DNA of 64,000 nt from an uncultured virus (IMG/VR IMGVR_UViG_3300017767_000001). Its lineage: Duplodnaviria > Heunggongvirae > Uroviricota > Caudoviricetes. Position 1 is the first letter of the stretch. Every line of letters starts with the position of its first letter. A program made the translations under genes and the position numbers. Shown in pieces: positions 3,158 to 63,179 of this stretch. The DNA lies in IMG/VR virus record IMGVR_UViG_3300017767_000001, positions 1 to 64,000 of that record, one strand, 5' to 3'. The notes under the pieces are model-generated. The model saw only the letters and a list, made by a program, of their open reading frames with translations, searched no databases and was not told where the DNA came from.

Positions 3158-3233
3158 TCTTCGTTTCCTTCTACGTTGTGAAATGGTAGCCCCGGGACAG
3201 TTTCCCGTGGCCGCTAATTGTTGGTGATAGAAC

Positions 3234-3320
3234 CTATCGCCCACTCTGAATCTGCTCAATCCATAAGAATGAAATAAGCGAGAGCGTAAGAAACAGGAAG
3301 TACCCTGCTAGAAATTCCAT
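3234..3320 (-). CDS. 28-aa hydrophobic micro-ORF
   Basis: AGGAG RBS then MEFLAGYFLFLTLSLISFLWIEQIQSGR, first ORF after the promoter at 3350-3378. Confidence 0.45.
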   Translation of the reverse strand: MEFLAGYFLFLTLSLISFLWIEQIQSGR

Positions 3321-3387
3321 TTGTAAGTCTCCTATCAATTTATACAGATATTATACCTGCATATGAAGTGAAAGTCAAGAAATTTTT

Positions 3388-4080
3388 TTAGATACGTGAT
3401 AAGTCTACTCCGTATTCTTCAAGGTGGGATAGCTTACCTAAATCATATGCGAGAGCTGAAGCGGTAAAACCACCGCCTTGTGCAGTAGTCCAACGATCAC
3501 TGTAATCATCATCAATTTTTTCAATTACCCAGATGTTGTATGCTTTACTACCATATTTCTTTTCGTAGTTTACATCTTTCATTCCGGGTTTTTCTGCCTG
3601 ATAATCTATAGACAATTCATATTTAATTATGGCAGGGCCGTGATACTTGGCCGACCATACTATCTCTCCATCAGCAAAATCTTCTGCAACGCACTCGTCC
3701 GGCAAGTAGTCGTAGGTTCCTTCTCCTTTTTGGGGAACTCCTGTACGTTCGATGATGGCTTTGACAAATCCTGAGGATCTGTACAACCCCGCTGCGATTT
3801 CTGAGATGGCGTCGCCGGATAAAAATCGAGTAACCGCATCTGCCACTTCATCTTTTGTGGCTGCTTTCCCTTTGTTTTGAGTTTTTCTTTTTGAACGATA
3901 CGCCTGCGTCTCTTCAAATTCATCAATTATTCTCTGAAGCCTGGTTGTATTGTATGCTATATTCAGGATACCACAGGCTTCCTTCTTTGTTATAGGACTG
4001 TTGCCACTCAGAAGATCGAGTACTTTCCGTATATTCGTATCGGACAAGTTCTCGGACTCTTTCTTCTTGATTCTTCTCAA
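3388..4080 (-). CDS. D2: T5 D2-like protein
   Basis: KV...L.....TKKEACGILN motif and synteny with D3; TTG start with GGGAG RBS. Confidence 0.8.
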   Translation of the reverse strand: MRRIKKKESENLSDTNIRKVLDLLSGNSPITKKEACGILNIAYNTTRLQRIIDEFEETQAYRSKRKTQNKGKAATKDEVADAVTRFLSGDAISEIAAGLYRSSGFVKAIIERTGVPQKGEGTYDYLPDECVAEDFADGEIVWSAKYHGPAIIKYELSIDYQAEKPGMKDVNYEKKYGSKAYNIWVIEKIDDDYSDRWTTAQGGGFTASALAYDLGKLSHLEEYGVDLSRI

Positions 4081-4297
4081 TTTTTGCTATCTCCCTATTT
4101 AGATACCATACTGCTTTGCTTAAATCATGTACAGGATCGTGAGTTTTTATTCCTGCTCTCCAGATATATTTTACAGCATTTCCAAGACAGAAACTCATAT
4201 GTTCTGTAATTTGAATACACTCCACCCCACTAGGGTGTGCTTTGTAGTGAGGAGGATGATATACATTAAATAGTTTACTTTTAAACTTGCCTACCAT
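3923..4297 (-). CDS. DUF3310 (SaV-like) protein
   Basis: V.HPPHY....GVECI.......FCLGNAVKYIWRAG.K.....DLSKAVWYL. Confidence 0.85.
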   Translation of the reverse strand: MVGKFKSKLFNVYHPPHYKAHPSGVECIQITEHMSFCLGNAVKYIWRAGIKTHDPVHDLSKAVWYLNREIAKIEKNQEERVRELVRYEYTESTRSSEWQQSYNKEGSLWYPEYSIQYNQASENN

Positions 4298-4491
4298 TGA
4301 TTATGCTCCGGTGCTTCCTGTTGTGTACGCGCGTCTACATAGTATTGAGCTTTCTCTCTACTAGTAAGTCGTGCTACGTCTTGAATTTTTCCGTCGGCCT
4401 TCTTTTCTACTACTCTATATACTCTTTCATTTTGAGCGTAGAATACTTCTACAATCTCATATGTACTTATCCCTCGTTCTCCAAGTTCCAC
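4291..4491 (-). CDS. hypothetical protein
   Basis: ORF packed in the operon with short overlaps. Confidence 0.55.
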   Translation of the reverse strand: MELGERGISTYEIVEVFYAQNERVYRVVEKKADGKIQDVARLTSREKAQYYVDARTQQEAPEHNQW

Positions 4492-4802
4492 ACACCTCTC
4501 CTGTTCTCTACGGGGGTAAGCTTAACTCGCTGTACCCACAAATGACCATTCTTTTCTGCATCTTGAAATGTAAGAGCAGTAATAAAAAATGCACTAATTA
4601 CTAATAAATGTCCACCTACACTTCCAAGACCAAAGTAAATACTATAGCCAGTCCAAAGCGTAAATACAACTGTCCACATAACTGATAGATAAAACATCAG
4701 TATGTACTGTGTAAACGCATTTGGTATAAGTCTTAAAGGGTTCATTTTAAGACTAAAAAAGAAATTATAGGTGTCGTACACCCAAAAGCCTAATTTTTTC
4801 AT
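4467..4802 (-). CDS. membrane protein, hypothetical
   Basis: Two hydrophobic helices; ATGA coupling to the upstream ORF. Confidence 0.7.
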   Translation of the reverse strand: MKKLGFWVYDTYNFFFSLKMNPLRLIPNAFTQYILMFYLSVMWTVVFTLWTGYSIYFGLGSVGGHLLVISAFFITALTFQDAEKNGHLWVQRVKLTPVENRRGVWNLENEG

Positions 4803-5595: not shown

Positions 5596-6039
5596 TCAAG
5601 TTACATTTTCTAGTCGTGTCATTAATCTTTCTGCTCGATTTGTAACTTGTCGGTACCATAAAGAGTCTCGGCCCTCTGCCGCAGCTTGTTTCCAGTTATG
5701 CTGGGATAAATGAAATCGCAGCTGCCGAAACTTCTCAAGTCTTGTAGCGCCGAGATTGAACGCCATGTTGACCATTATCAGTTGGACTTCTTCTGGCCAG
5801 TTGTGCCACTGTCCATATAGTCGTTCGCAGTCCTTAATGGCACATTCAATATCTCGATCGAAGAGCTCTCGGCTTCTCTGAGCCGTAATGGGTGTCCCGG
5901 CAGGCTTTCCAAACTCTTCATCTTCTGTTGTGACCAAGTGTCCAATACCAATAGTAGGGTATCCCAAGTGGTCATCATAGACTTCCAGAACTTCTCCTTC
6001 ATCTGCTTTAATTTCCTCATATAATCTTTCACGATCCAT
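5596..6039 (-). CDS. phage lysozyme (GH24/T4-type)
   Basis: DEG....VY.D.LGYPTIGIGHL catalytic E/D/T pattern; NMAFNLG, SLWYRQVTNRAERL. Confidence 0.9.
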   Translation of the reverse strand: MDRERLYEEIKADEGEVLEVYDDHLGYPTIGIGHLVTTEDEEFGKPAGTPITAQRSRELFDRDIECAIKDCERLYGQWHNWPEEVQLIMVNMAFNLGATRLEKFRQLRFHLSQHNWKQAAAEGRDSLWYRQVTNRAERLMTRLENVT

Positions 6040-6409
6040 GTTTGCTCCTATAATCTGCGACTGCTGCTTTGATAGCATCTTCCGCTAATACGCTACAATG
6101 TATTTTTACTGGCGGAAGTGATAATTCTTGAGCAATTTGGACATTGCTGATCTTTCCCGCTTCGTCAAGGGACTTTCCTCTAACCCATTCTGTGAGTAGT
6201 GATGAAGAAGCAATAGCACTGCCGCATCCGTAAGTTTTGAATTTAGCATCTTCAATAATTCCGTCGGTCGATACTCGGATTTGAAGTTGCATGACGTCTC
6301 CACACGCTGGAGCACCTGTGAGGCCTGTTCCGACATCTGGAGCATTCTTGTCAAGTTTTCCGACATTCCTGGGATTTTCATAATGATCTAATACCTTATC
6401 TGAGTACAT
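6029..6409 (-). CDS. iscU: Fe-S cluster scaffold IscU
   Basis: YSDKVLDHYENPRNVG, GAPACGDVM, FKTYGCGSAIASSS, LPPVKIHCS; all three Cys and the HscA-binding LPPVK motif are intact. Confidence 0.97.
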   Translation of the reverse strand: MYSDKVLDHYENPRNVGKLDKNAPDVGTGLTGAPACGDVMQLQIRVSTDGIIEDAKFKTYGCGSAIASSSLLTEWVRGKSLDEAGKISNVQIAQELSLPPVKIHCSVLAEDAIKAAVADYRSKHGS

Positions 6410-7537: not shown

Positions 7538-7960
7538 TTATGAAATTGTAACCTTTACGGGTTGCAGTTCATTAGGGATTTCTTCATGTAAATCAATACA
7601 TAGCAGTCCGCGTTCCATATAAGCTTTGTCTAGTTTTACGTGCTCACTTACGCCGAATGTGCGTGAGAAGCACTTACCGCTTAAGCCTTTGTAAACATAA
7701 GTTTCGTTACTAGATTCTGTTTGCTTTACAGTGCCCGATACTGTCAATAAGCCCTTATGAAGGCTAATCTCAAGATCATCTTTATTCCAGCCTGGCACAG
7801 CTAATTCGACCCTATGGCCCGTCTCGCCTACGCGTAGAATATTGAATCGAGGGTACCCACCATCGAGTGTGGGGGCAAAAACACTGGTATCATGAAACAT
7901 TCGGTCAAAACCTAACATAAATTTATGCAGGTCTGCCACTGCTAGTTTAGCATTAGTCAT
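7538..7960 (-). CDS. small heat shock protein Hsp20 (IbpA-like)
   Basis: LGFDRMF, YPRFNI, ELAVPG, YVYKGLS...FSRTF, GLL.IDL...IP....P..V.I. Confidence 0.93.
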   Translation of the reverse strand: MTNAKLAVADLHKFMLGFDRMFHDTSVFAPTLDGGYPRFNILRVGETGHRVELAVPGWNKDDLEISLHKGLLTVSGTVKQTESSNETYVYKGLSGKCFSRTFGVSEHVKLDKAYMERGLLCIDLHEEIPNELQPVKVTIS

Positions 7961-7981
7961 AAAGTTCTCCTTTTATGAATT

Positions 7982-8017
7982 GCGTCCTTTCGGTACGCTT
8001 GGGCTCTTTCGATGCCC
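7982..8017 (-). promoter_or_regulatory. tandem bulged-A GAAA hairpins in the hsp20 leader
   Basis: RNA GGGC-A-UC-GAAA-GA-GCCC and GCGU-A-CC-GAAA-GG-ACGC just upstream of the AAAGGAG RBS. Confidence 0.65.
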
Positions 8018-8034
8018 GGGTTATTGTTATCCAG

Positions 8035-8187
8035 TTATAGAGATGGACTCTCTTCGTCTAGTTCTAGGATTCCTTTCTCCATTAGATAGTTTACTGTAGC
8101 CTCAACCCCTGTACGGCGGCCGAGATAAAATGCGTGTCCGGCACAACCAAACATACAAAGTGCTAGTATTAAGTAAAGTCCGATCAA
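8035..8187 (-). CDS. 50-aa membrane-anchored hypothetical protein
   Basis: AGGAG RBS, TTG start, N-terminal TM helix. Confidence 0.55.
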   Translation of the reverse strand: MIGLYLILALCMFGCAGHAFYLGRRTGVEATVNYLMEKGILELDEESPSL

Positions 8188-8222
8188 GAGATTCTCCTAT
8201 TTCTGTACAAATTTATGGAGAT

Positions 8223-8318
8223 ATTATATCAAATTGAACGACAACTGTCAAGATATATTTTTTGGAACACCACATCGCAAAAATAACACTTGACTTCGAA
8301 TCTCACTTCGAATATAAT
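8223..8318. promoter_or_regulatory. divergent sigma70 promoter pair
   Basis: Minus strand TTGACA-17-TATAAT (8251-8223); plus strand TTGACT-17-TATAAT (8290-8318). Confidence 0.85.
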
Positions 8319-8325
8319 ATATGTC

Positions 8326-8496
8326 ATGAAAGAATATAAAAAGCAACCATGGTCGATACGCGAAAGAGTAATGTTGAAAGAGCACTACTCCAAGATGTCT
8401 GTAACAGAGTTACAGGAGAAAGTATTACCTAGTCGCACGGAAAACTCGATACGCAAACAGGTTGCGTACCTACGTAAAAGAGGTTGGAGTTTTTAG
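8326..8496 (+). CDS. small Myb/HTH-like DNA-binding protein
   Basis: PWS..E...LKEHY......L....LP.RT.NSIR..V..L pattern. Confidence 0.6.
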   Translation: MKEYKKQPWSIRERVMLKEHYSKMSVTELQEKVLPSRTENSIRKQVAYLRKRGWSF

Positions 8497-8510
8497 GCAG
8501 AAGGAGATAC

Positions 8511-8708
8511 ATGCCAAAAGTTAAAGTACGTAACAATAACGTAGACGCTGCTCTACGAGTTTTCAAGAAAAAATGTTCAGAAACACTATGGGATTATAAA
8601 CAGAAGGAATATTATGTACCACGAAGCGAAAAACGACGACTGGCTAAGCAGGCTGCAGTCGCAAGATTCAAACGAAAGAGAAACGATAATGGACGGAACA
8701 AATTTTGA
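8511..8708 (+). CDS. rpsU: 30S ribosomal protein bS21
   Basis: MPKVKVRNNNVDAALRVFKKKC......YYVPRSEKRR..KQAAV.R; AAGGAG RBS. Confidence 0.9.
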   Translation: MPKVKVRNNNVDAALRVFKKKCSETLWDYKQKEYYVPRSEKRRLAKQAAVARFKRKRNDNGRNKF

Positions 8709-9069
8709 GTTAGTTGGTGATTTTATGGAAGCCTTTGGTCAGGCTGTAGAAACTCAACCAACCTGGCCTGACTTTAGCACTCGTGAACTACGGGTAGATT
8801 TAATACAAGAAGAAGTAGATGAATTGGTGGAAGCGATTGCAAACAAAGATATGGTCGAAATCGCCGACGCTCTCACCGACATTCTCTATGTTGTATACGG
8901 TGCTGGTCATACATTTGGTATTGACCTTGATGAGTGTTTTACTGAAGTACATGCTTCTAACATGAGCAAACTCGGTGAAGATGGAACACCAATTAAAGCA
9001 GACAATGGCAAGGTAATGAAAGGCCCGGGCTTTTTCGCCCCAGATTTAGAGAGTATTCTAAACCAGTGA
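8689..9069 (+). CDS. MazG/PRA-PH-like NTP pyrophosphohydrolase
   Basis: LIQEEVDEL, EIADALTDILYV.YG, EVH.SNMSK, GKV.KGP. Confidence 0.9.
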   Translation: MDGTNFELVGDFMEAFGQAVETQPTWPDFSTRELRVDLIQEEVDELVEAIANKDMVEIADALTDILYVVYGAGHTFGIDLDECFTEVHASNMSKLGEDGTPIKADNGKVMKGPGFFAPDLESILNQ

Positions 9070-9257
9070 GAAATCTTTGGAAGTTCTTTGGCTCTACCTC
9101 GTCCTTGAAGGAGCAACTGGAATCTACAACTCTCGAAATTCAGTTGTCTCCACTGGAGTTTGCGTGTATAAAAATTATCATGATCCTCGGGATAGCACTA
9201 CCTACACTTTCTATATTCCTATACTTGCTAAATGTCCTCCATTTGTACGTCATATAA
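9066..9257 (+). CDS. hypothetical membrane protein
   Basis: GTGA overlap with the upstream gene, C-terminal TM helix, followed by a terminator. Confidence 0.45.
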   Translation: MRNLWKFFGSTSSLKEQLESTTLEIQLSPLEFACIKIIMILGIALPTLSIFLYLLNVLHLYVI

Positions 9258-9283
9258 AAAAGGGGCCGTAGCCCCTTTAATTT
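9255..9283. terminator. bidirectional intrinsic terminator
   Basis: AAAAAAGGGGC-CGTA-GCCCCTTTAA. Confidence 0.8.
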
Positions 9284-9477
9284 AGAAGTATCCTGAGTGG
9301 CCTAATTTCCAAAAGCACCAAAACACTACTATTCCATATATTATCCAATAAATTTCTTCCACCTATCCCTCCAATAAAATATTTTTTCGTTAACTGAGAA
9401 GCGCCCAGGTACTGTAATCCAAGACCAGGGCAAAAATAGTATTTGTAATATGCCAAAAAGTATGGTAAAATAAACAC

Positions 9478-9808
9478 ATATTTTGATGAACAATCAAGTC
9501 AATCACAGATTCTTACTAACTAGATCGAAATCGTTTGAATTAGATTTATTCTGGGCGGGGCATAAGGCGAAGCCGTAATGTCCCTAACCATAAATCTGAA
9601 TGAAACTGATTTCGGGATCACCAATCTCTGATTACTTTTGTGCTTCAATTAAGTATTGATTGTGACGAATATTCATAATAAAGATAATCAAATAATTCGT
9701 TCACAATCAAACAACCCCGCTAATAATCATTCTACGATTATTACTGAAAATCCGTCTACTACTTACACAAAACCCTTCAAAATTTGCGCCAATTCGCAAT
9801 TTTTTTAT
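9478..9808 (+). ncRNA. candidate rod-like structured RNA (or ssDNA origin hairpins)
   Basis: Promoter TTGTAA-17-TAAAAT (9443-9471); imperfect hairpin of about 140 nt (9496-9637); second hairpin 9656-9710; stem plus T-run at 9779-9808; no credible ORF. Confidence 0.45.
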
Positions 9809-9956
9809 GGCTTATAAAACATAAAAGGGAATGTTAAAAACAATAACCATACCATTAAAACCATGAAAAATTGTTCTAAATTTGATCCCCATAGCATCGG
9901 AATGCACATAATTGATACGTAGATCCACCATAACATGCTGAGAATCTCTCGCATTT

Positions 9957-10271
9957 TTACGACCCCGCTACCGCTTCAAGGAGTTTTCTGAGAGTTTCTT
10001 TTGGGCTCTTTTCGAGGCCCGATATACTTCCCACCTCGATCTCCAGAGCATCAGCGATATTCGAAACGATTTCAATTTTTGTGATAGGTTTTTCTCCAGT
10101 TTTTGAAACATACACCTCTCTCCGGTACACGCCTTCGCGTGATAGCTTTCCAATTATTGACTTCTTACTTCTATTGAGCTCTGCTGCAAGCAACTCTACT
10201 GTACGCATATTCGGACACATAGTATAGCTTTCAATCATATACTCAGTTTCACTCTCCGTGTAGTTCGACAC
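9957..10271 (-). CDS. T5 A2-like DNA-binding protein (paralog 1)
   Basis: GTG start after GGAGG; NYT...M...Y...LA.EL..SKKSIIGKLSREGVY...K.GE..I.K. Confidence 0.75.
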   Translation of the reverse strand: MSNYTESETEYMIESYTMCPNMRTVELLAAELNRSKKSIIGKLSREGVYRREVYVSKTGEKPITKIEIVSNIADALEIEVGSISGLEKSPKETLRKLLEAVAGS

Positions 10272-10330
10272 GTTCCCTCCTATAACTTCCTTTACCTTTC
10301 TTCGGTTTGTGGACCCCGCCACGATTGTGA

Positions 10331-10657
10331 TTATGCCGCGCCACCGGGTTTCGGATCGTCTCCTTCTGTCTGTTCTTGCCCCGCATAGCTTATTTCTCCT
10401 GTATCTAGATTTATAACTACGTCACCACTTATCCACTCTAGATATTCCACTTCGACATTATCCATGCCCCGGGCTTTAACATATTGAGTGAACACCAGGT
10501 CGTAGTAATGCTCTACTTCAGCTATTTTCTCTTCTAGCTTTTCTATAGTAGTATAGCACAATTGCATACTATCATACAACTCTTTTAGCTCATTTTTTGT
10601 CGTATTTAATTTTAACTTAATACGGCGTTCTTCTGGAAACTCGATTATATTCGACAT
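10331..10657 (-). CDS. coiled-coil hypothetical protein
   Basis: GGGAG RBS, MSNIIEFP start, promoter at 10680-10708. Confidence 0.7.
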   Translation of the reverse strand: MSNIIEFPEERRIKLKLNTTKNELKELYDSMQLCYTTIEKLEEKIAEVEHYYDLVFTQYVKARGMDNVEVEYLEWISGDVVINLDTGEISYAGQEQTEGDDPKPGGAA

Positions 10658-10728
10658 AAATTTCTCCCATAGAACACATATTATACAGCCCCTGAGAAAA
10701 AATGTCAAGAAAAATTTTTAGAACACAT

Positions 10729-10763
10729 AAAAAAATCCCCACATATTTCTATGCAGGGATTTT
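10729..10763 (-). terminator. intrinsic terminator
   Basis: AAAATCCCTGCATA-GAAA-TATGTGGGGATTTTTTT on the minus strand. Confidence 0.88.
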
Positions 10764-11285
10764 ACAGTTAGGTTTAGAGCCGCGAACTGCCACTAGGCTA
10801 TATAGTGCCTTTCGTTATGGTCGAGGGTTTCGACGCCTCTTTGCAATAATAGACCAATAATAAAAAGGACTTCCTCCTATAGTTATAGTGATACGCACCA
10901 ACCTTCCACACGTATCTGGGTATGTACTGCAGATACCACCCACCACTTTTTCGTTTTTGCTAAACCAGAATGCGAAAATGCAACAAAGCCGTAACTGGTC
11001 GTACACATCCGCCCGTGTACAAGGGGGTTCGATATAGTACCTCGAACAGGGAAAAGTGCGCTAAGTGGCACTAAACTAAGATGGTACTTTTTAACGTGCT
11101 TTGCCATCCCACATTAGCACTCTGTTCCTTACTCCTCGATGCCTTTCAACCTGTACACGGCAGGGTCAACAAGGGTGGAACAAATTAGGTTGGGGCTCCG
11201 GATAGGCCGAGTTAACTTTTACCGGGATCTTTACTGTCTTATCGCAAGTGGGTAGCACACTTATGGCGTCCCTGACTTCCCCCAT
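10729..11285 (-). ncRNA. candidate large (~550 nt) structured non-coding RNA
   Basis: Own promoter (11296-11325) and terminator; nested long-range helices with G-U pairs; no ORF with a good RBS. Confidence 0.7.
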
Positions 11286-11295
11286 TTAAGAAGAT

Positions 11296-11325
11296 ATTAT
11301 ACTCCGTTTTTGAACTAAAAGTCAA
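11296..11325 (-). promoter_or_regulatory. sigma70 promoter of the ncRNA candidate
   Basis: AAAAAGTTC-TTGACT-18-TATAAT. Confidence 0.85.
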
Positions 11326-11561
11326 GAACTTTTTTTCTCTACCCCACAAATTTTTTCAAACATTTTGTGTCCAGTGCCTTTTTCGTTGTACTCCAAAACT
11401 AGCCCATCACTGTTCATATGTAGTTTAGGTTCGAACTTTTCTACGTCAGCTTCGTACACGCAAAAGGTACGTAGACGCCACGCTATATTTTCTGCGTTCC
11501 CTTTAAGCTGCACGATGCACCACCTGTAGGTCAGCAATTCGTGCAAACAAATCAGCTTCAT
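11322..11561 (-). CDS. hypothetical protein (true start uncertain)
   Basis: ORF in operon; its stop lies within the next -35 box. Confidence 0.5.
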   Translation of the reverse strand: MKLICLHELLTYRWCIVQLKGNAENIAWRLRTFCVYEADVEKFEPKLHMNSDGLVLEYNEKGTGHKMFEKICGVEKKSS

Positions 11562-11682
11562 CTCCTACTAAAAACAACTCTTTCCGAGTAGTCCAGTCTC
11601 CGTCAATACGCCCACTAAACTCAAGCACAGTCCCATTTGTAGCAAATTGAATTGTCACTTGGTCTACTTCTTTGATTTCCAT
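11503..11682 (-). CDS. 59-aa hypothetical protein
   Basis: GGGAG RBS; MEIKEVDQVTIQFATNGTVLEFSGRIDGDW... Confidence 0.6.
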   Translation of the reverse strand: MEIKEVDQVTIQFATNGTVLEFSGRIDGDWTTRKELFLVGDEADLFARIADLQVVHRAA

Positions 11683-11689
11683 TAGTTAT

Positions 11690-11920
11690 TTACTCCCATG
11701 TAGAAGGATAAAAGGAAGAAAGAGAAAAGGTTTCACGAATTTCCCCCTCTTGATACATTGTACGAATTACGTTGTCAACCTCGGCCTCTGAAAGCGCCCA
11801 GTTGTGCCACAGCTCATCTTTTACTCTTTGCAGGCTTGTGAAAGACCTACGCTGACCTTCTACTTCTATTGTATCAGTCGCTCGGTCTACTACTGCCAAT
11901 CTTTCTTGCTTCTCTAGCAC
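11690..11920 (-). CDS. hypothetical protein
   Basis: GGAGG RBS, GTG start. Confidence 0.6.
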   Translation of the reverse strand: MLEKQERLAVVDRATDTIEVEGQRRSFTSLQRVKDELWHNWALSEAEVDNVIRTMYQEGEIRETFSLSSFYPSTWE

Positions 11921-12065
11921 GCTTTTCCTCCAGGTTTTCCAACGATGTCTTCATTGCAATCGCAGTGTCTTCATTAGAGCCATGATACATCAAAGCTCCC
12001 CTTTGATTAAATACTTTGAAAACGTATAGCCCGGGCCTTACAATTTCTCGTACCATGTGAGCCAT
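11874..12065 (-). CDS. hypothetical protein
   Basis: TAATG coupling to the upstream ORF. Confidence 0.55.
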   Translation of the reverse strand: MAHMVREIVRPGLYVFKVFNQRGALMYHGSNEDTAIAMKTSLENLEEKRAREARKIGSSRPSD

Positions 12066-12280
12066 TACTCTGCCACAATACCGTAGATAGCGAACTTAAA
12101 CTCAGGACTTTTGCCAAAGTTTGCAGCAGCTTTTACGGCCTCCGCCCTCTTAACGATAGGGGAGTTAGGCTTACGCTTCGCACGATATGCGCCATGCGAC
12201 ATTACTTTTTTACCATTAAATTTCTTGACCATGCGGTACTTTCGTGTAGTCGCGTGGTCGAAAATCATTGTTTTTGCCAT
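12065..12280 (-). CDS. basic hypothetical protein
   Basis: AAGGAG RBS before MAKTMIFD. Confidence 0.6.
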   Translation of the reverse strand: MAKTMIFDHATTRKYRMVKKFNGKKVMSHGAYRAKRKPNSPIVKRAEAVKAAANFGKSPEFKFAIYGIVAE

Positions 12281-12425
12281 CAAAATTCTCCTTATAGCGC
12301 ACAAAGTAGTACGCCTTGTAATCCACTTTATTTAAGGACTCCGCTTCTCGATAGGCGTCATAATACTCTAGCCAAGTATTTAGCCAAAGAGTTACTGCAC
12401 CAATTCGAATATAAACTACATACAT
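12216..12425 (-). CDS. hypothetical protein
   Basis: ORF track; operon position. Confidence 0.4.
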   Translation of the reverse strand: MYVVYIRIGAVTLWLNTWLEYYDAYREAESLNKVDYKAYYFVRYKENFDGKNNDFRPRDYTKVPHGQEI

Positions 12426-12464
12426 AGAAATACTTAAATAAAGCGGGGCACTAGGCCCCGGGAT

Positions 12465-12785
12465 TTAGCTCAAGATCTCGAGCAAAGCTTCAAGATCAAC
12501 CTTGGTCATCTTACCTACAGAAGGCAATTCACGGCCCAGTCGCTCGTTTACAGCGTTGACAAAGAACTCTTTCTTGACAACAGGCTCACCGCGCTTGGTT
12601 ACACGCTCTGCTTTCTGGTAGATACCTAGAGCAGACAATTTGGCGATGATAGAGCGAGGGCTCTTACCAAATTTGTCAGCCAGCGCATCGACAGTAGCAC
12701 GAACAGGGTCAGCAGAGTACTTTGTAGTGATCTCGGCAATCATAGTCTCAGAGTAGTTCTGAGAGGCGTTAGCAGTCATAGTCAT
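12465..12785 (-). CDS. T5 A2-like DNA-binding protein (paralog 2)
   Basis: NYSE.M......Y......TV..LA..FGKSPRSIIAKLS.LGIY.K.....KRGE..V.K; own promoter 12835-12863 and downstream hairpin. Confidence 0.8.
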   Translation of the reverse strand: MTMTANASQNYSETMIAEITTKYSADPVRATVDALADKFGKSPRSIIAKLSALGIYQKAERVTKRGEPVVKKEFFVNAVNERLGRELPSVGKMTKVDLEALLEILS

Positions 12786-12854
12786 TTTTGTTTCTCCCGA
12801 AAAAAATTAAGTAAATTACCACTTTTGAAAATATATTATACAAGGTTCTGAGGA

Positions 12855-13283
12855 TTATGTCAAGAGATTTTTTTGGAAAGCTGCAAATAATTCTACTTCT
12901 TTTTCCCTTGCAGCTACCTCCCACGGAGCACTCCAATATTCATCCCAGTTATCAATGTCTCTTTTAAATAGTTCGTCTTGCCACATAGCATGATCGGTTT
13001 CTAACTCAAGCTCGCAGTAAATGTATTGGCGAGCGTGCTCTAGCTCATGAAATATAGTTCGTAGCCAATGAGAACTTTTATTAATACGAAGAATAATTTT
13101 ATGCCCTAGGTCTACAGAATCTCCAAAGTCTGTTTCGTGCTCGCCTTTAAGATATATAGTAATAGGCACAGGAGTGATTCCTAGATCAAGTTCTCCCATA
13201 GCAAAGTCGATCGCAGCTCGAGCTAAGTATCGTTCAGGCATTGACCATGCTTTTTTTGCTTTTACCTTTAACTTATACATCAT
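12855..13283 (-). CDS. HExxH zinc metallopeptidase-like protein
   Basis: IFHELEHARQY ... YW.APWE..A. Confidence 0.7.
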   Translation of the reverse strand: MMYKLKVKAKKAWSMPERYLARAAIDFAMGELDLGITPVPITIYLKGEHETDFGDSVDLGHKIILRINKSSHWLRTIFHELEHARQYIYCELELETDHAMWQDELFKRDIDNWDEYWSAPWEVAAREKEVELFAAFQKNLLT

Positions 13284-13464
13284 CTAACTTTACCTTCTCC
13301 CGCAGCCAAGAGTACAGCTCTACTGCACTGTCATCGTATCCGTTGGGGTACTCTTCGTCTGGTAACAAACAACGTATGGTATAGAGAAAAGCGTCTAGTT
13401 TAGGCACTCCGTCCATACGCATACCTGCGTACAAGCTAAAGGCTTCAAATTGAATATCGTTCAT
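13273..13464 (-). CDS. hypothetical protein
   Basis: GGAGG RBS before MNDIQF; promoter at 13487-13515. Confidence 0.65.
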   Translation of the reverse strand: MNDIQFEAFSLYAGMRMDGVPKLDAFLYTIRCLLPDEEYPNGYDDSAVELYSWLREKVKLDDV

Positions 13465-14002
13465 ATAGTTCCTCCGATTTATAAATATTATACCGGCTCC
13501 GGGTTTCAATGTCAAACAATTTTTGCCATACCCCCAACATAAATTTATTCCGGGGGGCGGCGTACGAAATTGCGGCTGTCAAGTGTTTTTTGCACTTAAT
13601 CTGCCAAAATTTTCGTAAATTTGACACTGTTTGCCCCAGGTTTGCCACAATTTGCCATCTTACACTACCCCGCAGAGACTTGTCAATCGATTTATTTGCA
13701 CCAATTGTGCAAAAAGTACTTGACAATCGTCGGTGTACTACTGTATAATTGGCGCGCCGCGCTTTTTAAAACAATTTGCCCTATTGCCGTAAAAAGTTCT
13801 TGACAATCCCGGGCTTTGCGCGTATACTACCAGGGTGGGCACGGGGTCTGGCACAAAGACTGCACGTTCTTAAAAAAATTTTGCCCATACCCGCAAAAAA
13901 GACTTGACAATCGTCGCTTTTGCACGTATTCTGGCGCAGGTAACACCAATCGAATCGAAACTTCACTTTCGCACTGGCGCCCGCGCGCCAAAAATCGTTA
14001 TA

Positions 14003-14015
14003 AATCAAGGGGTTG
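14003..14015 (+). promoter_or_regulatory. IHF consensus site
   Basis: AATCAAGGGGTTG matches WATCAANNNNTTR. Confidence 0.55.
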
Positions 14016-14031
14016 TGTTCCACGTGGAACC
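14016..14031. promoter_or_regulatory. parS: bacterial chromosomal parS-type palindrome
   Basis: TGTTCCACGTGGAACC, containing the 14-bp perfect palindrome GTTCCACGTGGAAC. Confidence 0.75.
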
Positions 14032-14631
14032 TTATGCGAGCCGTTCGCATAAAGTAGCCAGCAAATTTTTGATCCCGCGTTTTTTGTCGGCATAATCTAC
14101 AGTGTGCCAGTCGGAATCAATAACGCGCTCTTTTAATATGCTCATGCGGTCATAATGCGAAAGTGCGTTTTCATCATTAGCAGAAAATTTCCAATAGGTC
14201 AGGGGCGAATGCTTGCGAGCTATAATTCGGCGTTGCTGTTCTTGTTCCGAAATCGAAAGCCAAAATTTAATAAAGCGCACCGGCTGGTTAGCTTCCCAGT
14301 TTTTATGACGCCGCATAAAATTTTTGTATTGTCGCGGAGTGCACCAGCCATTCAAATGTTGCACCATGCCCCGGCTGTACCAGCTTCGGTCAAAAAACAC
14401 GATGCGATTTTGTCGCGGCAGTTTGGTTTCCCAATAGGGGAGCCAGCTTGCCATCGCTTGTTTTGTCGGTTTGTGCGATAGGCAAACGCTGTAAAGATCC
14501 GGCGGTAGGTAGTGGGTCAATTCTCGAATGGTAGAGGATTTGCCCGCAGTGTCGCGCCCCTCTAAAATTACCGCAACCGGAGCGGAGAGATTCTCCGCGA
14601 GCCGGTTCAGATTAGCTTGCAATTTTTTCAT
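14032..14631 (-). CDS. ppk2: polyphosphate kinase 2 family protein
   Basis: EGRDTAGK Walker A, FFDRSWY Walker B, KFWLSIS..EQ..R, P...WKFS..D. Confidence 0.92.
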   Translation of the reverse strand: MKKLQANLNRLAENLSAPVAVILEGRDTAGKSSTIRELTHYLPPDLYSVCLSHKPTKQAMASWLPYWETKLPRQNRIVFFDRSWYSRGMVQHLNGWCTPRQYKNFMRRHKNWEANQPVRFIKFWLSISEQEQQRRIIARKHSPLTYWKFSANDENALSHYDRMSILKERVIDSDWHTVDYADKKRGIKNLLATLCERLA

Positions 14632-14738
14632 CAGAATCCCCCATTAAACCAGTAGTAAATTGCGGCTCCCCATATAGCGAGATCGGTAATCACGCTATAG
14701 AGGAAATAGAGGGCGGCGAGTGCCGCGCCAAATCTCAC
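14631..14738 (-). CDS. 35-aa hydrophobic micro-ORF
   Basis: MRFGAALAALYFLYSVITDLAIWGAAIYYWFNGGF; GTGA/TGATG coupling on both sides. Confidence 0.55.
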   Translation of the reverse strand: MRFGAALAALYFLYSVITDLAIWGAAIYYWFNGGF

Positions 14739-15238
14739 GCCGTCACCTCAGCATAGTCTACCGGCAGAGGACAACCGTGTATACCCTTCGCTCGCTTGTG
14801 GGCAACAATACCCTCGCCAATCTGCAAGTTAGATTGGCGATAGCTGTTAGTGAAGCGAGCCATCGCGGTTTTGGCAGAGCAGAAATAAAATTCTGATTTG
14901 CCGCCAACCTCAAGCCAACGCTTGTCATATAGCATCGCCTTGTCATCTTTGTTGCGAGCGTGAACAAATTGCTCGGCGGCAAGCACCTGCTCGTTATCGC
15001 CCAGCTTCATTCGCCATACGCGAGCGTGAAGCTCCCCGCGATTGTAGCCGAAAGCGTCCTCAACATCCCGCAAGCACCAAGTCACGCGCTCGATACCACC
15101 GTGTCGCCCGTTCGCGTAAGCGTGTCGGGCATACCCGTTTTTGAAAACGCCAAATTCTAGCAGTTCCCAAACGTAGTGCCAAGCCATACCAGAGATGGGG
15201 GTGATCTCAGGTGCTGTATCTGTTGATCGTAATATCAT
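14735..15238 (-). CDS. pre-early hypothetical protein
   Basis: ATGA-coupled to dmp. Confidence 0.7.
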   Translation of the reverse strand: MILRSTDTAPEITPISGMAWHYVWELLEFGVFKNGYARHAYANGRHGGIERVTWCLRDVEDAFGYNRGELHARVWRMKLGDNEQVLAAEQFVHARNKDDKAMLYDKRWLEVGGKSEFYFCSAKTAMARFTNSYRQSNLQIGEGIVAHKRAKGIHGCPLPVDYAEVTA

Positions 15239-15708
15239 GCTGAAAGCCTCTCGTTAAGTGAAATTGAATCATACGCTTTTATGCCGATGCGGTCAAGCAT
15301 TTTCAAAACGGATTTATTGTCATCATAAAATACCGCAGTCGCGCAAAATTTACCCCATCCCATCGGGCGGGTGCGAGCATAGTTTCGGATCATCTTTTCT
15401 TTTAGATCCGCGTCAGGTGTGGCGTCCCCCTCTCGCCGCGATAGGCAAGCATCCCAGCGCAAGCCATGCTCCCGTAGATATTCGTAATCATGTTCCCCCA
15501 TAACGCGGGCAGTGCAGATCACGATGGTGACATTCTTTTTTGCCAGCCGTCGCCATTGTGCCGCGAGGGGTAGCAGGGTGTCACGCATGATGTTTGCGCG
15601 GGTGTTGTTCTGACGCCATGCCGCAAGATCAAGCGAGCCATCGGGCCGCGTGATCTGTCGGTGTGAGCTGTCGATAACCGTATGGTCAAGATCAAAAATA
15701 AAGTGCAT
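15235..15708 (-). CDS. dmp: HAD-family deoxynucleoside-5'-monophosphatase (T5 dmp-like)
   Basis: FDLDHTVIDSSHR...GSLDL...IMRDTLLPL...ICTARVM...DYEYLR, YDDN; closely parallels remembered T5 Dmp. Confidence 0.85.
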   Translation of the reverse strand: MHFIFDLDHTVIDSSHRQITRPDGSLDLAAWRQNNTRANIMRDTLLPLAAQWRRLAKKNVTIVICTARVMGEHDYEYLREHGLRWDACLSRREGDATPDADLKEKMIRNYARTRPMGWGKFCATAVFYDDNKSVLKMLDRIGIKAYDSISLNERLSA

Positions 15709-15889
15709 AAGAGTAACCTATAATTCCAGCCAGATTCAAGAATACCAGATTGTAAGCCCGAATGTCAAGCGCTTGAACCGTTAATAATACCAACCCACCG
15801 ATAGCGGCCAGCTTGCCCGCGTCGGTATCGATTGCGAAAGGGGCGAGGGCCATAGCCCCCGCTCCGCACCAGCCGATAACCGCTATCAT
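15692..15889 (-). CDS. small membrane protein
   Basis: Hydrophobic, 2-3 TM; coupled to the A2-like gene. Confidence 0.65.
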   Translation of the reverse strand: MIAVIGWCGAGAMALAPFAIDTDAGKLAAIGGLVLLTVQALDIRAYNLVFLNLAGIIGYSYALYF

Positions 15890-16179
15890 CCGATGTTGCT
15901 CAGGATGTTGGACAGCTCGCCCTTGGTGAAGTCGCCTTCGCGGGCAGGCATCGCCAGCGCGGTGCGGATCTCCGCGAGAATGTCGGCCTTGGTAGGGCCG
16001 CGAGAAACGCGAGCGGCGGGAGCCGCCTTAACATACTCAACCCCAAGGGATTGAGCCTTGCTAATGACCGAGCGATGTGATACGCTCCCGAAATCAGAGG
16101 CGAGTTGCTTTGCCTTTGCGAGATTGAGAGGAGCCGCCGCGCGAATCGCCGCAACCATTTTATCAGTATAGTTAGACAT
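15886..16179 (-). CDS. A2: T5 A2-like DNA-binding protein (pre-early copy)
   Basis: MSNYTDKM...LA.DFG.VS.RSVISKA.SLGVEYVK; first gene of the dmp operon. Confidence 0.7.
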   Translation of the reverse strand: MSNYTDKMVAAIRAAAPLNLAKAKQLASDFGSVSHRSVISKAQSLGVEYVKAAPAARVSRGPTKADILAEIRTALAMPAREGDFTKGELSNILSNIG

Positions 16180-16345
16180 AAAGTGCTACCTTTGGTTTTA
16201 GCCGAGAGCCAATCCCCCAGCCGATGCAAGCATTATAACCCAGTTGCCGCCCAAAAGTACAGGCTTTTTTATGGTAATATGTCACAAAAAAATCGCTTGA
16301 CCCCAGGCCGGGGATGTGTTACCCTCCGGGCCGGGGGGGGGCGGT

Positions 16346-16364
16346 AATGAGACTCATTCTCATT
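16346..16364. promoter_or_regulatory. Fur-box-like site
   Basis: AATGAGACTCATTCTCATT versus AATGANAATNATTNTCATT, one mismatch. Confidence 0.55.
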
Positions 16365-16428
16365 TAGCGCTCGCGCGCACCCCAACACGTACTACTTGGG
16401 GATTTTTTGAACCTGCCAAAAATAACGC

Positions 16429-16457
16429 TTGACTTTGATGCTCCCTTCGAGTATAAT
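16429..16457 (+). promoter_or_regulatory. sigma70 promoter
   Basis: TTGACT-17-TATAAT. Confidence 0.85.
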
Positions 16458-16480
16458 TATCTAAAATTAAGGAAAGCGTA

Positions 16481-17074
16481 ATGAAAGTTTTAGTAGCGTG
16501 TGAATTTAGCGGAACCGTCCGGGACTGCTTTATAGCAATGGGCCATGATGCAATTTCATGCGATCTTCTTCCTACTGAAGCACGAGGACCACATATTCAA
16601 GGAGATATTCTTGATATACTTTATGACCCTAGCTGGGATCTTATTATTGCTCACCCTCCCTGCACTTATCTTGCTGCTTCTGGGTTACATTGGAATAAGA
16701 AAATTGAAGGAAGAGCTCAGAAAACCGAAGAAGCCCTTAATTTTATCACAGCCATCTGGGAAGCGCCAGTAGAAAAGCTGTGTATTGAAAACCCGGTGGG
16801 TTGTATCAACACCCGCCTCGATTTTATGCCAAAGCCCCAATATGTCCAGCCATATAATTACGGAGAAGACGCTTCAAAGAAAACTGGTTTGTGGCTGAGG
16901 GGCTTGGCACCCTTAGAACCTACCGAAGTTATAGAACCTCGGTATGTAGATGGAAAACCTCGATGGAGTAACCAAGGTGACACTGGTTATGATAAATTTG
17001 GTGGAGGTCAAGGAAAAGAACGAAGTGTCACATTTTTTGGTATAGCAGCCGCAATGGCACTACAATGGGGATAA
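16481..17074 (+). CDS. DNA cytosine methyltransferase-like protein
   Basis: VLVACEFSG, SCDL, HPPCTYL (catalytic PC), IENPVG, K.TGLW. Confidence 0.8.
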   Translation: MKVLVACEFSGTVRDCFIAMGHDAISCDLLPTEARGPHIQGDILDILYDPSWDLIIAHPPCTYLAASGLHWNKKIEGRAQKTEEALNFITAIWEAPVEKLCIENPVGCINTRLDFMPKPQYVQPYNYGEDASKKTGLWLRGLAPLEPTEVIEPRYVDGKPRWSNQGDTGYDKFGGGQGKERSVTFFGIAAAMALQWG

Positions 17075-17075
17075 T

Positions 17076-17402
17076 ATGAACTTAACTATTTTAAACTTAA
17101 ATTATTTATTGCACGACCAACAAACTCTTAGGTACAATACTGTAGAAAGTATAGAGTGGAGTGCAGAAAAGACGGAAGGAGGTATTGGGGCAGGAAGGCA
17201 CTCAACTGTTAAACTTCACGCCCCTGGAGAAGATTTTATTCCTTTTGAAGATATAACAGAAGAAAAAGCTTTAATTTGGCTCAGAGATGCTTTAGGAACT
17301 TCAGGCTTAGAAATCATTGAGAGGGAGCTAAACGAAGAGTTAAATGGCTTGCTAAATCCTACGCACGGTAGTGGAAGACCTTGGACGGAAAGCGGTATCT
17401 AA
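17076..17402 (+). CDS. small tail-fibre-associated protein
   Basis: FIPFEDITEE....W...ALG...G.PW family, usually next to fibres. Confidence 0.55.
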   Translation: MNLTILNLNYLLHDQQTLRYNTVESIEWSAEKTEGGIGAGRHSTVKLHAPGEDFIPFEDITEEKALIWLRDALGTSGLEIIERELNEELNGLLNPTHGSGRPWTESGI

Positions 17403-20400
17403 ATGGCTACTTGGTCTTGGACAGAGTCTTTGTATACACCCGGGTATGGGGTACAGCCCTACTCTAGTTTATCTAGATACACTGCGGTTATAAAATCTTC
17501 GGATACAGTACAGCTAACAACTCAATACACTGGCAGTGTCGCCCTTGCTTACCAAATAAATTACATATCCCAGCCGAATGGATCCTCCACCGTTAATAAC
17601 CCTGACCCAACTCCTTCAGGGTCATTATTGAACAGAACTTGGACTACGAGTAGTTTTTCTGACAATGATTATCATACTCGTTGGTACTGGTATACCACTG
17701 ATACATACGGATACACTAGTCCAAATGCACAAAAATCTGTAAGAATTTTAGTAATTCCTAGTACCGTTGGCTGGGGCTCGGTTTCGGCTAGTATTCAGAA
17801 AGGTTTTAACGGAACAGTTAAACTTTCTATTCCCACTGCTTTTCAAAGCTATTTAACGGGTAGTGGTACCGATAGCGGTGATACTCTTCAAAGCTGGGAA
17901 CAGGCCAAAGATGAAAGATTTTTTTGGAGAGTTTCACAGTCTCAAACCGGCCACAGTACTGCTTATGGATTTACTACTGGCAGTGGTGTATTGACTTCGC
18001 CCACTGATCTCGACGAAATCACACTTAGTCCCACGCTAAGTTCTAATGCAGGGGTTCATTGGGTACACCTATATCATTACGATTACAATGGGCAAACAGG
18101 AACAGCAGACCACCTAATAGATTCTATTTCTTTTAATGTAACCAACCCCGCTGCCTTAGACACTAATATTACTCTAAACTCGACCTCTGTCAATATACTT
18201 AGTGGTGCAAGTAATTACTCCCTTAGTATGACGCAGGGGGGAACTAATACTATTTACTACATTTTAGATACATCAAACCTTGCGAACGGTAGTAATATCG
18301 CCGCAGCGAGCTCTAACTATATAGCAAGAACTTGGAACAGTAATAGTGGTAATAACTCTCGACCTTTTGAAACAGTGCAAGGTAGTGGAGTAATTTCAAA
18401 TGGTTTACCTACTTCGGCCACTGCCACTTTTTATCTTTATGCTGCAAATGGAAACGGTCAAAACAGTATAAGACTAACTACAGGGGACACTCAATATACA
18501 GTAACGCCACAAGCTCAAGCTCCTTCTATTAGCCCCTATAAAACAATTATTACCAATGGATTTCAAATGTGGTCAAATCCATCAGGTACAACGGCTGGAA
18601 CAATTCAATATCAATGGAAAGTACAGGGCGGTGGCTCCGGGTCTAATGGCAACACTGTCCATACTTTTCCGTGGACAGCGGAAATAAATAATTTAGGAGA
18701 AAATGCAGCAGTTGGTACATCATGGAGAGGTACATCTTGGACGGTTCAAGCTCGAGCAACTGTAGATAATGGAGCAAATTACGACTACAGCAGTACTTCT
18801 TCTCCTATAACTCTTCCTGATTATTCTTTTACTACGGTTCCGAATTCTATACAAGAGGGGCAGACTGGAACTTTTACTGTAGCTTCTACAAATGGCCTAG
18901 GCCCTATCTATTGGCAGGCTACTACAACAAGTGGCGGAGATTTTTCAACTTCTAGTGGTCAAGTGGGTTCGGGAACAGGGTGGTCTTCAGGAAGTTTTAC
19001 TGTAACTCCTTCAACAGATAGTGATTCAGACGCTTCAGAAACTGCAACAATAAAGCTATACGTTACTAATATCTTCAATTCTTACAACGACCTTAGCATT
19101 TCCGATACATTCACTATTACAGGGGCTAGTACAACTCCTACTGCAGATACAATAAGTGGAGTCACTTGGTCAAGTACTAATACTGCAAATTCAAATCCAA
19201 CAGTATCTTGGAGTGGGGGCAGTGGTGGTACCTCAGGTAACCCAGCAGTTATAGGAAGTACAACGAATTCACTTCCTAGTTCTTCAAATGGTGCTTGGGT
19301 AACGGACCTTAATCAGACTTCTCCTACAACACTAACTATTGATGCATATGGAAATGCTTATGTAAGAGGGGTTACTTACTATTTTTGGGTTCGAAGAAGT
19401 GCCAATGTAGTCAGTACTCCTTTTACTTCAACAGCTCCGTATATTCCTCTTAGCGACTCTTCAATTACAATTGATACTCCTACTGATAAAAACGGAACTG
19501 ATTTAAATTTAGTTAACGGAGTATATGAAATACCTTCCTCCTATGGAACAGCCGCCGCCGATATTATAGGTATTCCTTTTACCGACGGAGGAACTTATGA
19601 TCAGTACCGAGTTCTTAATGACACAACGAGTCAGTGGCCAGAAAGTGCCAATGTTGGAGCCTCTGGAACATTTAGTCTTGTTACTACTCAGAGCGGAGCT
19701 TTACCCCCTGCAGGAAGTACATATGTTTATAGCTTTTCAGGTAGAAGGCCTCCAACTACCGGAGGTAGCGGAAGTTGGCAAACTGTAAATAGTGGAACAA
19801 CAATACGTATTAAAAGACTTGGCACAGGAACTCCTTATAGCGTTTCTGCTAACCCTACGTCAATTAATGAAGGACAATCAACTACATTTACAGTAACTTA
19901 CTCGAATATTTCTAGCTCTCGAACAGTTAATTATACTATTGAAGGAATTCAGGACCTTGATATATCTTCAGGAGCTCTCACTGGAAGCTTTAGCATTAAT
20001 TCAGGAAGTGGTACAGCAACTACAGTTATTACACTCGCAAATGATAATTTAACAGACGGGCCAAAAACCGCCACCCTAACTTTAGCAAACACTGATAGTG
20101 CCCAAACTTCAACAGGGACGCCAAGTGCTTCTGTATCTATTGCAGATACTTCTACAGCAGGTTCGGGCAGTGGTACTAATCTTAATTCCGGAACGGCTAG
20201 TGATTATGGGTTAGAGATATACAATCCCAGTGGTACTCTAATTATTAACGATATTTCTAGGCTGGGTACTTTTCTTGCTTTTGACTCCCATACATTTACT
20301 GCGAGTTCGACTACTACTACTATGTTTAATGGATTCGACTGCAGTAGTAAATCAACAACAGGTATATTTCTTACAGGCTGGACTGGATATCAGTGGCTAT

Positions 20401-63168: not shown

Positions 63169-63179
63169 GGAGAAAATAT

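Follow-up and report, generated by a model that had tools for sequence, protein, structure and literature searches.

Can a short block of genes take over a host cell and at the same time secure the nucleotide supply of the invading phage? The question is raised by positions 14032-16237 of the viral record IMG/VR IMGVR_UViG_3300017767_000001, where a homologue of the T5 deoxynucleotidase Dmp shares an operon with polyphosphate kinase 2 (PPK2). The window analysed here comprises bases 1-64000 of this 94,590-bp record (CheckV completeness 97%), and positions refer to the window unless the record is named. In phage T5, dmp, A1 and A2 reside inside the repeat which is transferred in the first step of DNA entry; an earlier note on this DNA had stated this correctly, and the same holds for Vibrio phage phi 3. 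The reading which we favour, with about as much confidence as doubt, is that the block constitutes a conserved early host-takeover and nucleotide-supply operon of an uncultured marine clade that is related to the described Demerecviridae and stands outside of them.

Six overlapping minus-strand cistrons fill the stretch 14032-16179 (Table 1). From 5' to 3' they overlap by 4, 17, 4, 4 and 1 nt, with the junctions ATGA, GTGA and TGATG; these overlaps fit a translational coupling of all six. The GC content of 14032-16237 is 0.518; across the record, segments of this length (1848 in total) have 0.402 ± 0.036. Ten of these segments reach 0.518 and all ten overlap the operon region, which makes it the most GC-rich stretch of the record. 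The codon profile gave the same picture: GC3 of the six genes is 0.52-0.64, the genome mean is 0.33. The gene list, the overlapping leftward cistrons and the GC richness described in the earlier note were all found again. Near relatives keep the GC excess of the operon (0.49-0.52 versus 0.39-0.41), and it fades gradually in distant ones. Because near relatives share it and the operon is common to the whole clade, the excess is a property of the module within its lineage, not a mark of recent import.

The arrangement is conserved. PPK2 is carried by 20 related IMG/VR loci with 51-90% identity. In 15 of the 20 the genes for the 97-aa protein, the 65-aa protein, Dmp, the protein between Dmp and PPK2 (the 'slot', see below) and PPK2 are contiguous and divergent from the late genes; two loci are cut at contig ends and three are arranged otherwise. 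The late-gene neighbour in the relatives is a methyltransferase or the small terminase. PADLOC assigned none of the six proteins to a defence system. A megablast search of 50,697 phage records with 13500-17500 returned no nucleotide relative, and 9000-18999 or parts of it turned up in the runs of 11 sequencing studies, whose labels are without exception marine, seawater or viral metagenome.

The identities which the earlier note had given to dmp and PPK2 hold. The Dmp homologue matched phrog_415, the PHROG of T5 Dmp, with E 7.6e-20, and T5 Dmp as a phmmer query found it with E 4e-16. BLASTP aligned the two proteins with 34% identity over 168 columns (E 7e-19); T5 Dmp is the longer one with 244 aa. 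The motifs DLDHT, CTAR and DDN were read in the sequence. Among isolates, annotated dmp genes of Demerecviridae match it best. In those records that annotate a terminal repeat (phi 3, My1), the matching dmp sits inside it, within the first kilobase. A sequence search of the PDB found no relative of Dmp.

The last gene of the operon encodes a PPK2. The protein matched Pfam PF03976 with E 2e-38 and 132.7 bits (cut-off 22.3) over profile positions 14-219 of 229. The best-scoring curated model was TIGR03707, the NCBIfam class I PPK2 equivalog, and the best PDB relatives were 3CZP (PA3455), 5LLB/5LL0/4YEG (Francisella) and 3CZQ (SMc02148), with E from 1e-27 to 8e-32. Aligned to FtPPK2, the sequence contains GRDTAGKSS as Walker A, FFDRSWYSR as Walker B and RKHSPLTYWKFSAND as lid, in agreement with the definitions of these motifs (Walker A GxDxxGK, Walker B DRS, lid R...WK.S..D). 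GRDxAGK, DRSWYSR and PLxxWKFSxND are invariant in 11 clade members which are only 52-90% identical overall. The dN/dS ratio is 0.10-0.15, i.e. the gene is under purifying selection. Compared with the class I enzymes (PA0141-type, TIGR03707; FtPPK2 5LLB/4YEG, SMc02148 3CZQ), a near-complete domain with Walker A, DRSWY and lid is kept, whereas both termini are trimmed, leaving 199 aa versus 263-304 aa in the solved single-domain relatives.

The nearest cellular PPK2s comprise 277-337 aa, are at most 40% identical and come from SAR86, from metagenome-assembled genomes (MAGs) of other marine Gammaproteobacteria and from OM43, which hints only faintly at the host of the phage; the best match in 185,579 species genomes had just 40% identity. 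One PPK2 with 86% identity is labelled as belonging to a Paracoccaceae MAG and lies on a 1.6-kb contig. The short form is common in metagenomes with at least 120 sequence clusters at 64-96% identity, and the 120 best clusters listed are 192-209 aa long save three truncated entries. Only 15 of the 50,697 phage records contain PPK2 relatives. None of them is T5-like; the best are metagenome records of huge phages with about 38% identity. Its presence in 20 related viral contigs and its distance from every cellular PPK2 (identity 40% or less) mark the gene, on sequence evidence, as a long-standing resident of the clade and no recent import. It is a fixed and probably active member of the module. 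Metagenomic surveys have already reported ppk2 as an auxiliary metabolic gene of viruses (PMC13188868). As in those cases, the gene is found on a viral contig of aquatic origin; the difference is that here it is a fixed member of the dmp operon in a defined lineage instead of an isolated gene on an unplaced contig. We found no published report of a PPK2 in a T5-like phage in the literature on PPK2 and polyphosphate in phages, judged mostly by titles and the starts of abstracts.

What would the enzyme do? Its closest solved and curated relatives are of the class I type. Class I PPK2 enzymes phosphorylate NDPs at the expense of polyphosphate. By analogy, this is the likeliest predicted activity of the phage protein, and we infer that it would extend to dNDPs. 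The genome encodes class I ribonucleotide reductase (RNR) subunits (PHROG scan), and PPK2 is the only nucleotide kinase recognised in it. Homologues of T5 Dnk, Thy, Frd, Dut, PhoH and RNase H were absent from the genome at E ≤ 0.01 (phmmer). Because Dnk, Thy, Frd and Dut were not detected and RNR yields dNDPs, a predicted polyphosphate-driven (d)NDP kinase which works beside the phage RNR appears most plausible.

A1 is missing. According to a 2026 preprint (10.64898/2026.04.02.716235), T5 A1 is essential, it is sufficient for host DNA degradation, second-step transfer requires it and none of the 227 Demerecviridae genomes analysed lacks it. The T5 A1 family, phrog_1745, gave no match at E ≤ 10 in the whole record; as a positive control the same search recovered both A1 copies in T5. 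A1 (phrog_1745) was also absent from the whole records of five of five relatives, one of which (78.7 kb) is a closed circular assembly with a 127-bp overlap and another (101 kb) is 100% complete by CheckV. Thus, the record and its five relatives lack what that preprint presents as a hallmark of the Demerecviridae. A Pfam scan of the 64 non-structural open reading frames (ORFs) identified a single Metallophos protein, an SbcD/D12-like gene at record positions 85320-86279; the structural ORFs were scanned with PHROGs only. A search of the genome with PF00149 was empty although the SbcD-like gene matched Metallophos in the direct scan, and we gave no weight to that negative. Taken by sequence, the absence of A1 is solid, and no A1 homologue lies anywhere in the record. 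The note had suggested a minimal region with a different takeover route. For such a route there is now a concrete candidate, since a nuclease function is probably present in another form in the slot between dmp and ppk2.

This slot was compared in the loci of 12 relatives. Five hold a member of the same family as the 167-aa protein (this count includes a 195-aa form, phmmer E 2.7e-11), six hold a DEDDh-exonuclease-like gene and one holds neither. The DEDDh-like protein has 216-238 aa and the motifs DTET, YNxxFD and HTALSDA. It matched phrog_20187 with E down to 6e-46, phrog_192 ('DNA polymerase exonuclease subunit') with E 1.9e-9 and the PADLOC DEDDh profile with E 1.7e-5; a sequence search of the PDB returned nothing. 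In the genome analysed here this gene was not found elsewhere. The sole isolate homologues (31-35% identity) are in Enterococcus phages of about 134-142 kb and in the gut phage Phass-1; there the homologue occurs at two places per record, possibly terminal repeats.

The 167-aa protein itself had no match in Pfam, PHROG, NCBIfam or PADLOC, and a set of 1.84 billion representatives yielded just 36 relatives at E ≤ 1e-3. An initial fold from 13 close sequences was unstable, with pLDDT 75 in one model and 36-48 in the other four; searches with it were unusable and it was superseded. The AF2 model from a 24-sequence alignment has a pLDDT of 95.2 in all five models. In a structure search of 48,161 PDB representatives, carried out with a tool other than Foldseek, At-HIGLE ranked first (Z 5.0, rmsd 3.2, 88 residues), followed by Slx1 entries on ranks two and three (Z 4.9 and 4.6). 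PD-T4-3, I-TevI, T4 EndoII and R.Eco29kI ranked lower. At-HIGLE, Slx1, PD-T4-3, I-TevI and T4 EndoII all belong to the GIY-YIG group, and the title of the R.Eco29kI entry itself names GIY-YIG. Among the 50 BFVD rows listed, 12 were 'T5 Orf172 DNA-binding domain' proteins and one was a 'GIY-YIG nuclease'; these matches had probabilities of about 1.0 but E of 2e-3 to 3.5e-2. With Foldseek, the good model had no match in the PDB at E ≤ 1e-3; the ESM Atlas gave no usable match. Y22, K33, G35, G47, R51, H93, G113, E116 and G141 are invariant in the family, and an Asn is nearly so. T5orf172 is a member of the GIY-YIG clan. With GIY-YIG/T5orf172 the family appears to share a similar predicted beta-beta-alpha-beta-alpha-alpha core, the invariant Tyr, Arg and Glu and the near-invariant Asn. 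It differs in the second motif Tyr, which varies (Y/F/V/I), in being a narrow orphan family of 36 representatives and in structural scores of the grey zone. On balance, the predicted structure makes a GIY-YIG/T5orf172-like nuclease fold somewhat more probable than not, and the alternation with the DEDDh-like gene lends it independent support. From the predicted fold and this alternation it follows that a small nuclease in the slot probably stands in for A1.

The first two cistrons are less easily named. The earlier note had called the 97-aa protein A2-like. Taken alone, the protein matched no Pfam or PHROG family at E ≤ 0.01, BLASTP to T5 A2 gave nothing, and it was not among the matches when its own genome was searched with phrog_1725, the A2 PHROG. 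The label could be upheld at the level of a profile. Two paralogues of the protein are encoded in the window (12465-12785 and 9957-10322), so that three members of this small DNA-binding family lie within 6 kb; BLASTP relates it to the 106-aa paralogue with E 4e-6, and the clade as a whole retains all three groups. In an alignment of 29 sequences from the three groups 18 of the 29 members matched phrog_1725 and 16 a D5-like PHROG. The family profile aligned with T5 A2 (hhalign probability 78%, E 1.7e-5), with phi 3 A2 (88%, E 3e-6) and also with T5 D3 (69%); by these alignments the family is to be described as A2/D3-like and not specifically as A2. The dN/dS of the 97-aa protein is 0.14-0.23. 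A strong phrog_1725 match at 2792-3259 adjoins the D2-like helicase and the ligase and by its position is the counterpart of D3, not A2. The following 65-aa protein had been called a membrane protein, a label with hydrophobicity as its sole basis; it is 44-89% identical in relatives (tblastn). A match to phrog_4820, the PHROG of T5.005, was not obtained at E ≤ 10. T5.005 has likewise 65 aa, with two transmembrane segments, and lies between A2 and A1, i.e. size and place agree without detectable homology. The 35-aa micro-protein ahead of PPK2 is 69-100% identical in relatives with a dN/dS of 0-0.14, which indicates purifying selection; loci L021 and L022 have similar hydrophobic ORFs of 34-37 aa at the matching place.

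Table 1. Genes of the operon and its flanking control regions.
Feature	Position	Strand	Basis
Remote member of the A2/D3 DNA-binding family (phrog_1725), 97 aa	15886-16179	-	paralogue-family profile
Hydrophobic protein, 65 aa	15692-15889	-	hydropathy
Dmp homologue, HAD-type 5'-deoxynucleotidase, 157 aa	15235-15708	-	phrog_415, phmmer, BLASTP
Putative GIY-YIG/T5orf172-like nuclease, orphan, 167 aa	14735-15238	-	predicted fold
Hydrophobic micro-protein, 35 aa, GTG start	14631-14738	-	conservation in relatives
Compact class-I-like PPK2, 199 aa	14032-14631	-	PF03976
Upstream control region	16180-16300	-	TATAAT at 16237-16232, poor -35; upstream of these the conserved element TGTGACATATTACCA
Three tandem consensus sigma-70-type promoters	13694-13932 (13720, 13800, 13904)	+	12/12, 11/12, 10/12 within 35-66-nt repeat

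The genome around the operon is built like that of T5. Identity to Demerecviridae proteins is about 50% for the large terminase and about 44% for the DNA polymerase, and nothing closer exists in the phage collection. A PHROG scan of 110 ORFs, compared with the T5 annotation, showed that the early region is colinear with T5 D2-D3-ligA-ligB-D5-D6-pri-pol...D12-D15. The order is D2-like helicase, D3-like DNA-binding protein, a regulator, a split NAD ligase, D5-like protein and DnaB (D6), and further along primase, polymerase, D10-like helicase, SSB, SbcD/SbcC (D12/D13), RusA (D14) and D15. All elements of a T5-type backbone are thus present (split NAD ligase, D5, D6, polymerase, D12/D13, D15, terminase), at a protein identity of merely 44-50%. 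The minus strand carries all early genes (16.2 kb down to 1, continued from 94.6 to 78.8 kb), the plus strand the late genes (16.48-78.8 kb). tRNAs were not found in the window. Rfam had no match in the window at gathering thresholds and none at E ≤ 1 in 13300-16600.

With respect to gene content and order the analogy to T5 is justified. The pre-early module of T5 and phi 3 (A2, T5.005, A1, dmp) and the marine operon have in common the homologous Dmp, a (remote) A2-family first cistron followed by a 65-aa hydrophobic protein, the position of A2 upstream of dmp and the location on a single strand. They differ in the loss of A1, in the putative nuclease, micro-protein and PPK2 added downstream of dmp, in the orientation of the operon away from the late genes and in the presence of three A2-like paralogues instead of one. 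The core order of the T5 pre-early genes is retained, with A2-family protein, small hydrophobic protein and downstream Dmp, and A1 is gone. An exchangeable, putative small nuclease lies between dmp and ppk2, probably of a GIY-YIG/T5orf172 fold here and a DEDDh-type exonuclease in other members, and the 35-aa hydrophobic peptide and the trimmed class-I-like PPK2 close the operon. In the scheme that we infer, host RNA polymerase would transcribe the operon early. Nuclease and Dmp might then break down host DNA to nucleosides, the task of A1 and Dmp in T5. PPK2 would move phosphate from the polyphosphate store of the host onto (d)NDPs, sustain the NTP pools and convert dNDPs made by RNR into dNTPs at no cost in ATP.

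Several observations weigh against this scheme. The upstream promoter of the operon is weak, matching the consensus at 9 of 12 positions, whereas neighbouring promoters are perfect. The three tandem promoters downstream (Table 1) converge on the 3' end of ppk2. In RNA runs X15 and X16 contigs covered 13.0-16.3 kb hardly or not at all, and these runs are uninformative on expression. As to orientation, the operon runs away from the late genes instead of toward a genome end as in T5 and phi 3. For the slot protein, a Z of 5.0 falls under the noise range of 7-8 stated for the tool, the Foldseek E values were 2e-3 or worse, and the Pfam T5orf172 model matched one of 24 family members at E 0.14, which amounts to no sequence support. 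PPK2 scored 151.5 bits with TIGR03707 and so failed its equivalog cut-off of 301.8 bits, it lacks the extensions which its nearest cellular relatives have at both termini, and host Ndk could render a phage NDP kinase redundant.

The control regions were compared in the relatives. A promoter-like site about 70-95 nt before the start codon is present in the record itself and in four of 12 relatives (L016, L018, L022, L027); L016 scores 10/12 and L022 12/12. In the other eight a -10-like hexamer was read by eye at the matching position and the scan was silent. An upstream element, TGTGACATATT(A/C)(A/C)C(C)A, is common to six of the 13 sequences. Promoters in convergent orientation downstream of ppk2 exist in 10 of 12 relatives; an antisense control of the operon by them is a guess. 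Sequencing contigs vary in copy number or sequence at the promoter repeat 13694-13932.

Is the operon a true first-step-transfer module? This would mean a direct terminal repeat of about 3.5 kb which enters first and is expressed before the rest, as in T5. We consider this possible, though clearly less probable than an early operon as such. In annotated relatives dmp and A2 always lie within the terminal repeat. The type of terminase is linked to the packaging mode, and the T5-type terminase suggests long exact terminal repeats. Further, the operon is placed where a collapsed repeat would fall, with the early genes on one side and the start of the late genes on the other. The earlier note had proposed to look for a doubling of read coverage. 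At the level of contigs this yielded a weak, confounded hint over about 12.8-15.6 kb; depth is one figure per Logan contig, and the runs X1 and X4 may both be the source sample. In X4 the error-free contigs 12816-13441 and 14123-15645 had depths of 33.1 and 40.6, about twice the 16.8-20.9 of the adjacent flanking contigs. In X1 the contig 7974-16341 had a depth of 41.6 and its neighbours 27.9 and 34.5, about right for a doubled 3.5-kb part, but the contig 3000-4772 was equally deep (43.7). The pattern fits a repeat of about 3.5 kb and, equally well, a sequence shared by co-occurring strains, which would give an identical picture of depth. At 16331-16339, between operon and late genes, is a run of about 9-10 G at which the X1 contigs break; one virome contig has an extra G. 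End repeats were not found in the record. Those of the relatives are assembly overlaps or paralogues, and record and relatives assemble as circles or near-circles. The ends of the record (window 1-341; record 94276-94590) lie inside a D5-like gene with internally repeated modules; joined, they are out of frame and do not form a seamless D5-like gene, and a little sequence is probably missing at the join. The lack of A1, a gene required for second-step transfer in T5 (10.64898/2026.04.02.716235), and the weak operon promoter also argue against a first-step module.

Alternatively, the operon may be an ordinary early auxiliary-metabolic cassette in which Dmp and PPK2 tune the phosphate and nucleotide pools in a phosphate-poor ocean and the 167-aa protein is no nuclease. 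The published viral ppk2 genes (PMC13188868) would agree with this, as would the weak structural scores of the nuclease fold and other auxiliary genes of the genome, i.e. a NifU-like Fe-S scaffold (6029-6409), Hsp20 (7538-7960), a MazG/PRA-PH-like pyrophosphohydrolase (8614-9069) and a 2OG-Fe(II) oxygenase (52273-52842). Yet the module retains the T5 pre-early gene order, and a DEDDh-type exonuclease in the slot of six of 12 relatives is hard to square with phosphate metabolism. We therefore regard such a cassette as unlikely.

Equally unlikely in our view is that PPK2 has a task other than that of a polyphosphate:(d)NDP kinase. It might drain polyphosphate to counter stress or defence responses, serve as a reverse sink of NTPs or replace Dnk as an NMP kinase. 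The PPK2 family has NMP-specific and NDP-specific classes. The trimmed form, the score under the class I cut-off, weak thymidylate-kinase matches of PPK2 in the Pfam and NCBIfam scans and the missing Dnk would be compatible with such a role. On the opposite side is the class I type of its closest solved and curated relatives; the alternative activities cannot be separated by sequence. That the GC-rich block was recently imported as a moron from a GC-richer host or element is very improbable: its GC and GC3 and the Paracoccaceae-labelled PPK2 would suit an import, but the whole operon is common to clade members whose PPK2s have diverged to 51-65% identity, near relatives share the GC excess with gradual fading, and the best of the species genomes is merely 40% identical.

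Some observations concern other parts of the genome. A 142-aa protein with a HELEH motif is encoded at 12855-13283 on the minus strand; it belongs to phrog_10499 (unknown function), had no Pfam match and possibly is a small metalloprotease. At 10735-11289, also on the minus strand, is a candidate structured non-coding RNA of about 540 nt, bounded by an 11/12 promoter (11325-11296) and a terminator with a 14-bp stem (10763-10732). Its nucleotide identity in four relatives is 90-96% with indels that are not multiples of three, and one helix has three compensatory pairs. A metatranscriptome contig over 10752-11181 had a depth of 458 compared with at most 12 elsewhere on the phage. A convincing Rfam match was not obtained for this RNA (10600-11400 gave only weak, terminator-like matches), nor was a similarity to T5 stable RNAX. 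A long series of tail-fibre-like genes at 58.4-78.8 kb of the record (58415-64000 in the window) contains diverged internal repeats, 75-87% identical in copies 1.4-5.4 kb apart, and suggests several receptor-binding proteins.

The most far-reaching version of the early host-takeover and nucleotide-supply operon combines all these elements, and we consider it doubtful as a whole. It would be a widespread marine sister lineage of the T5 family without A1, in which a short terminal-repeat takeover operon is expressed, interchangeable nucleases feed Dmp and a minimal PPK2 burns polyphosphate for NTPs and dNTPs. If true, this would be the first polyphosphate-powered nucleotide supply wired into the first-expressed genes of a phage. 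For NTP regeneration, the minimal PPK2 may have practical value as well. A phage with T5 backbone, Dmp and A2-like proteins and devoid of A1 offers a natural comparison for the question which functions of A1 are replaceable, i.e. DNA degradation, second-step transfer and transcription shut-off, and what replaces each of them. That Dmp is constantly paired with a trimmed PPK2, in a genome in which Dnk, Thy, Frd and Dut were not detectable, points to polyphosphate as a source of phosphate and energy for the nucleotide supply of phages in the sea.

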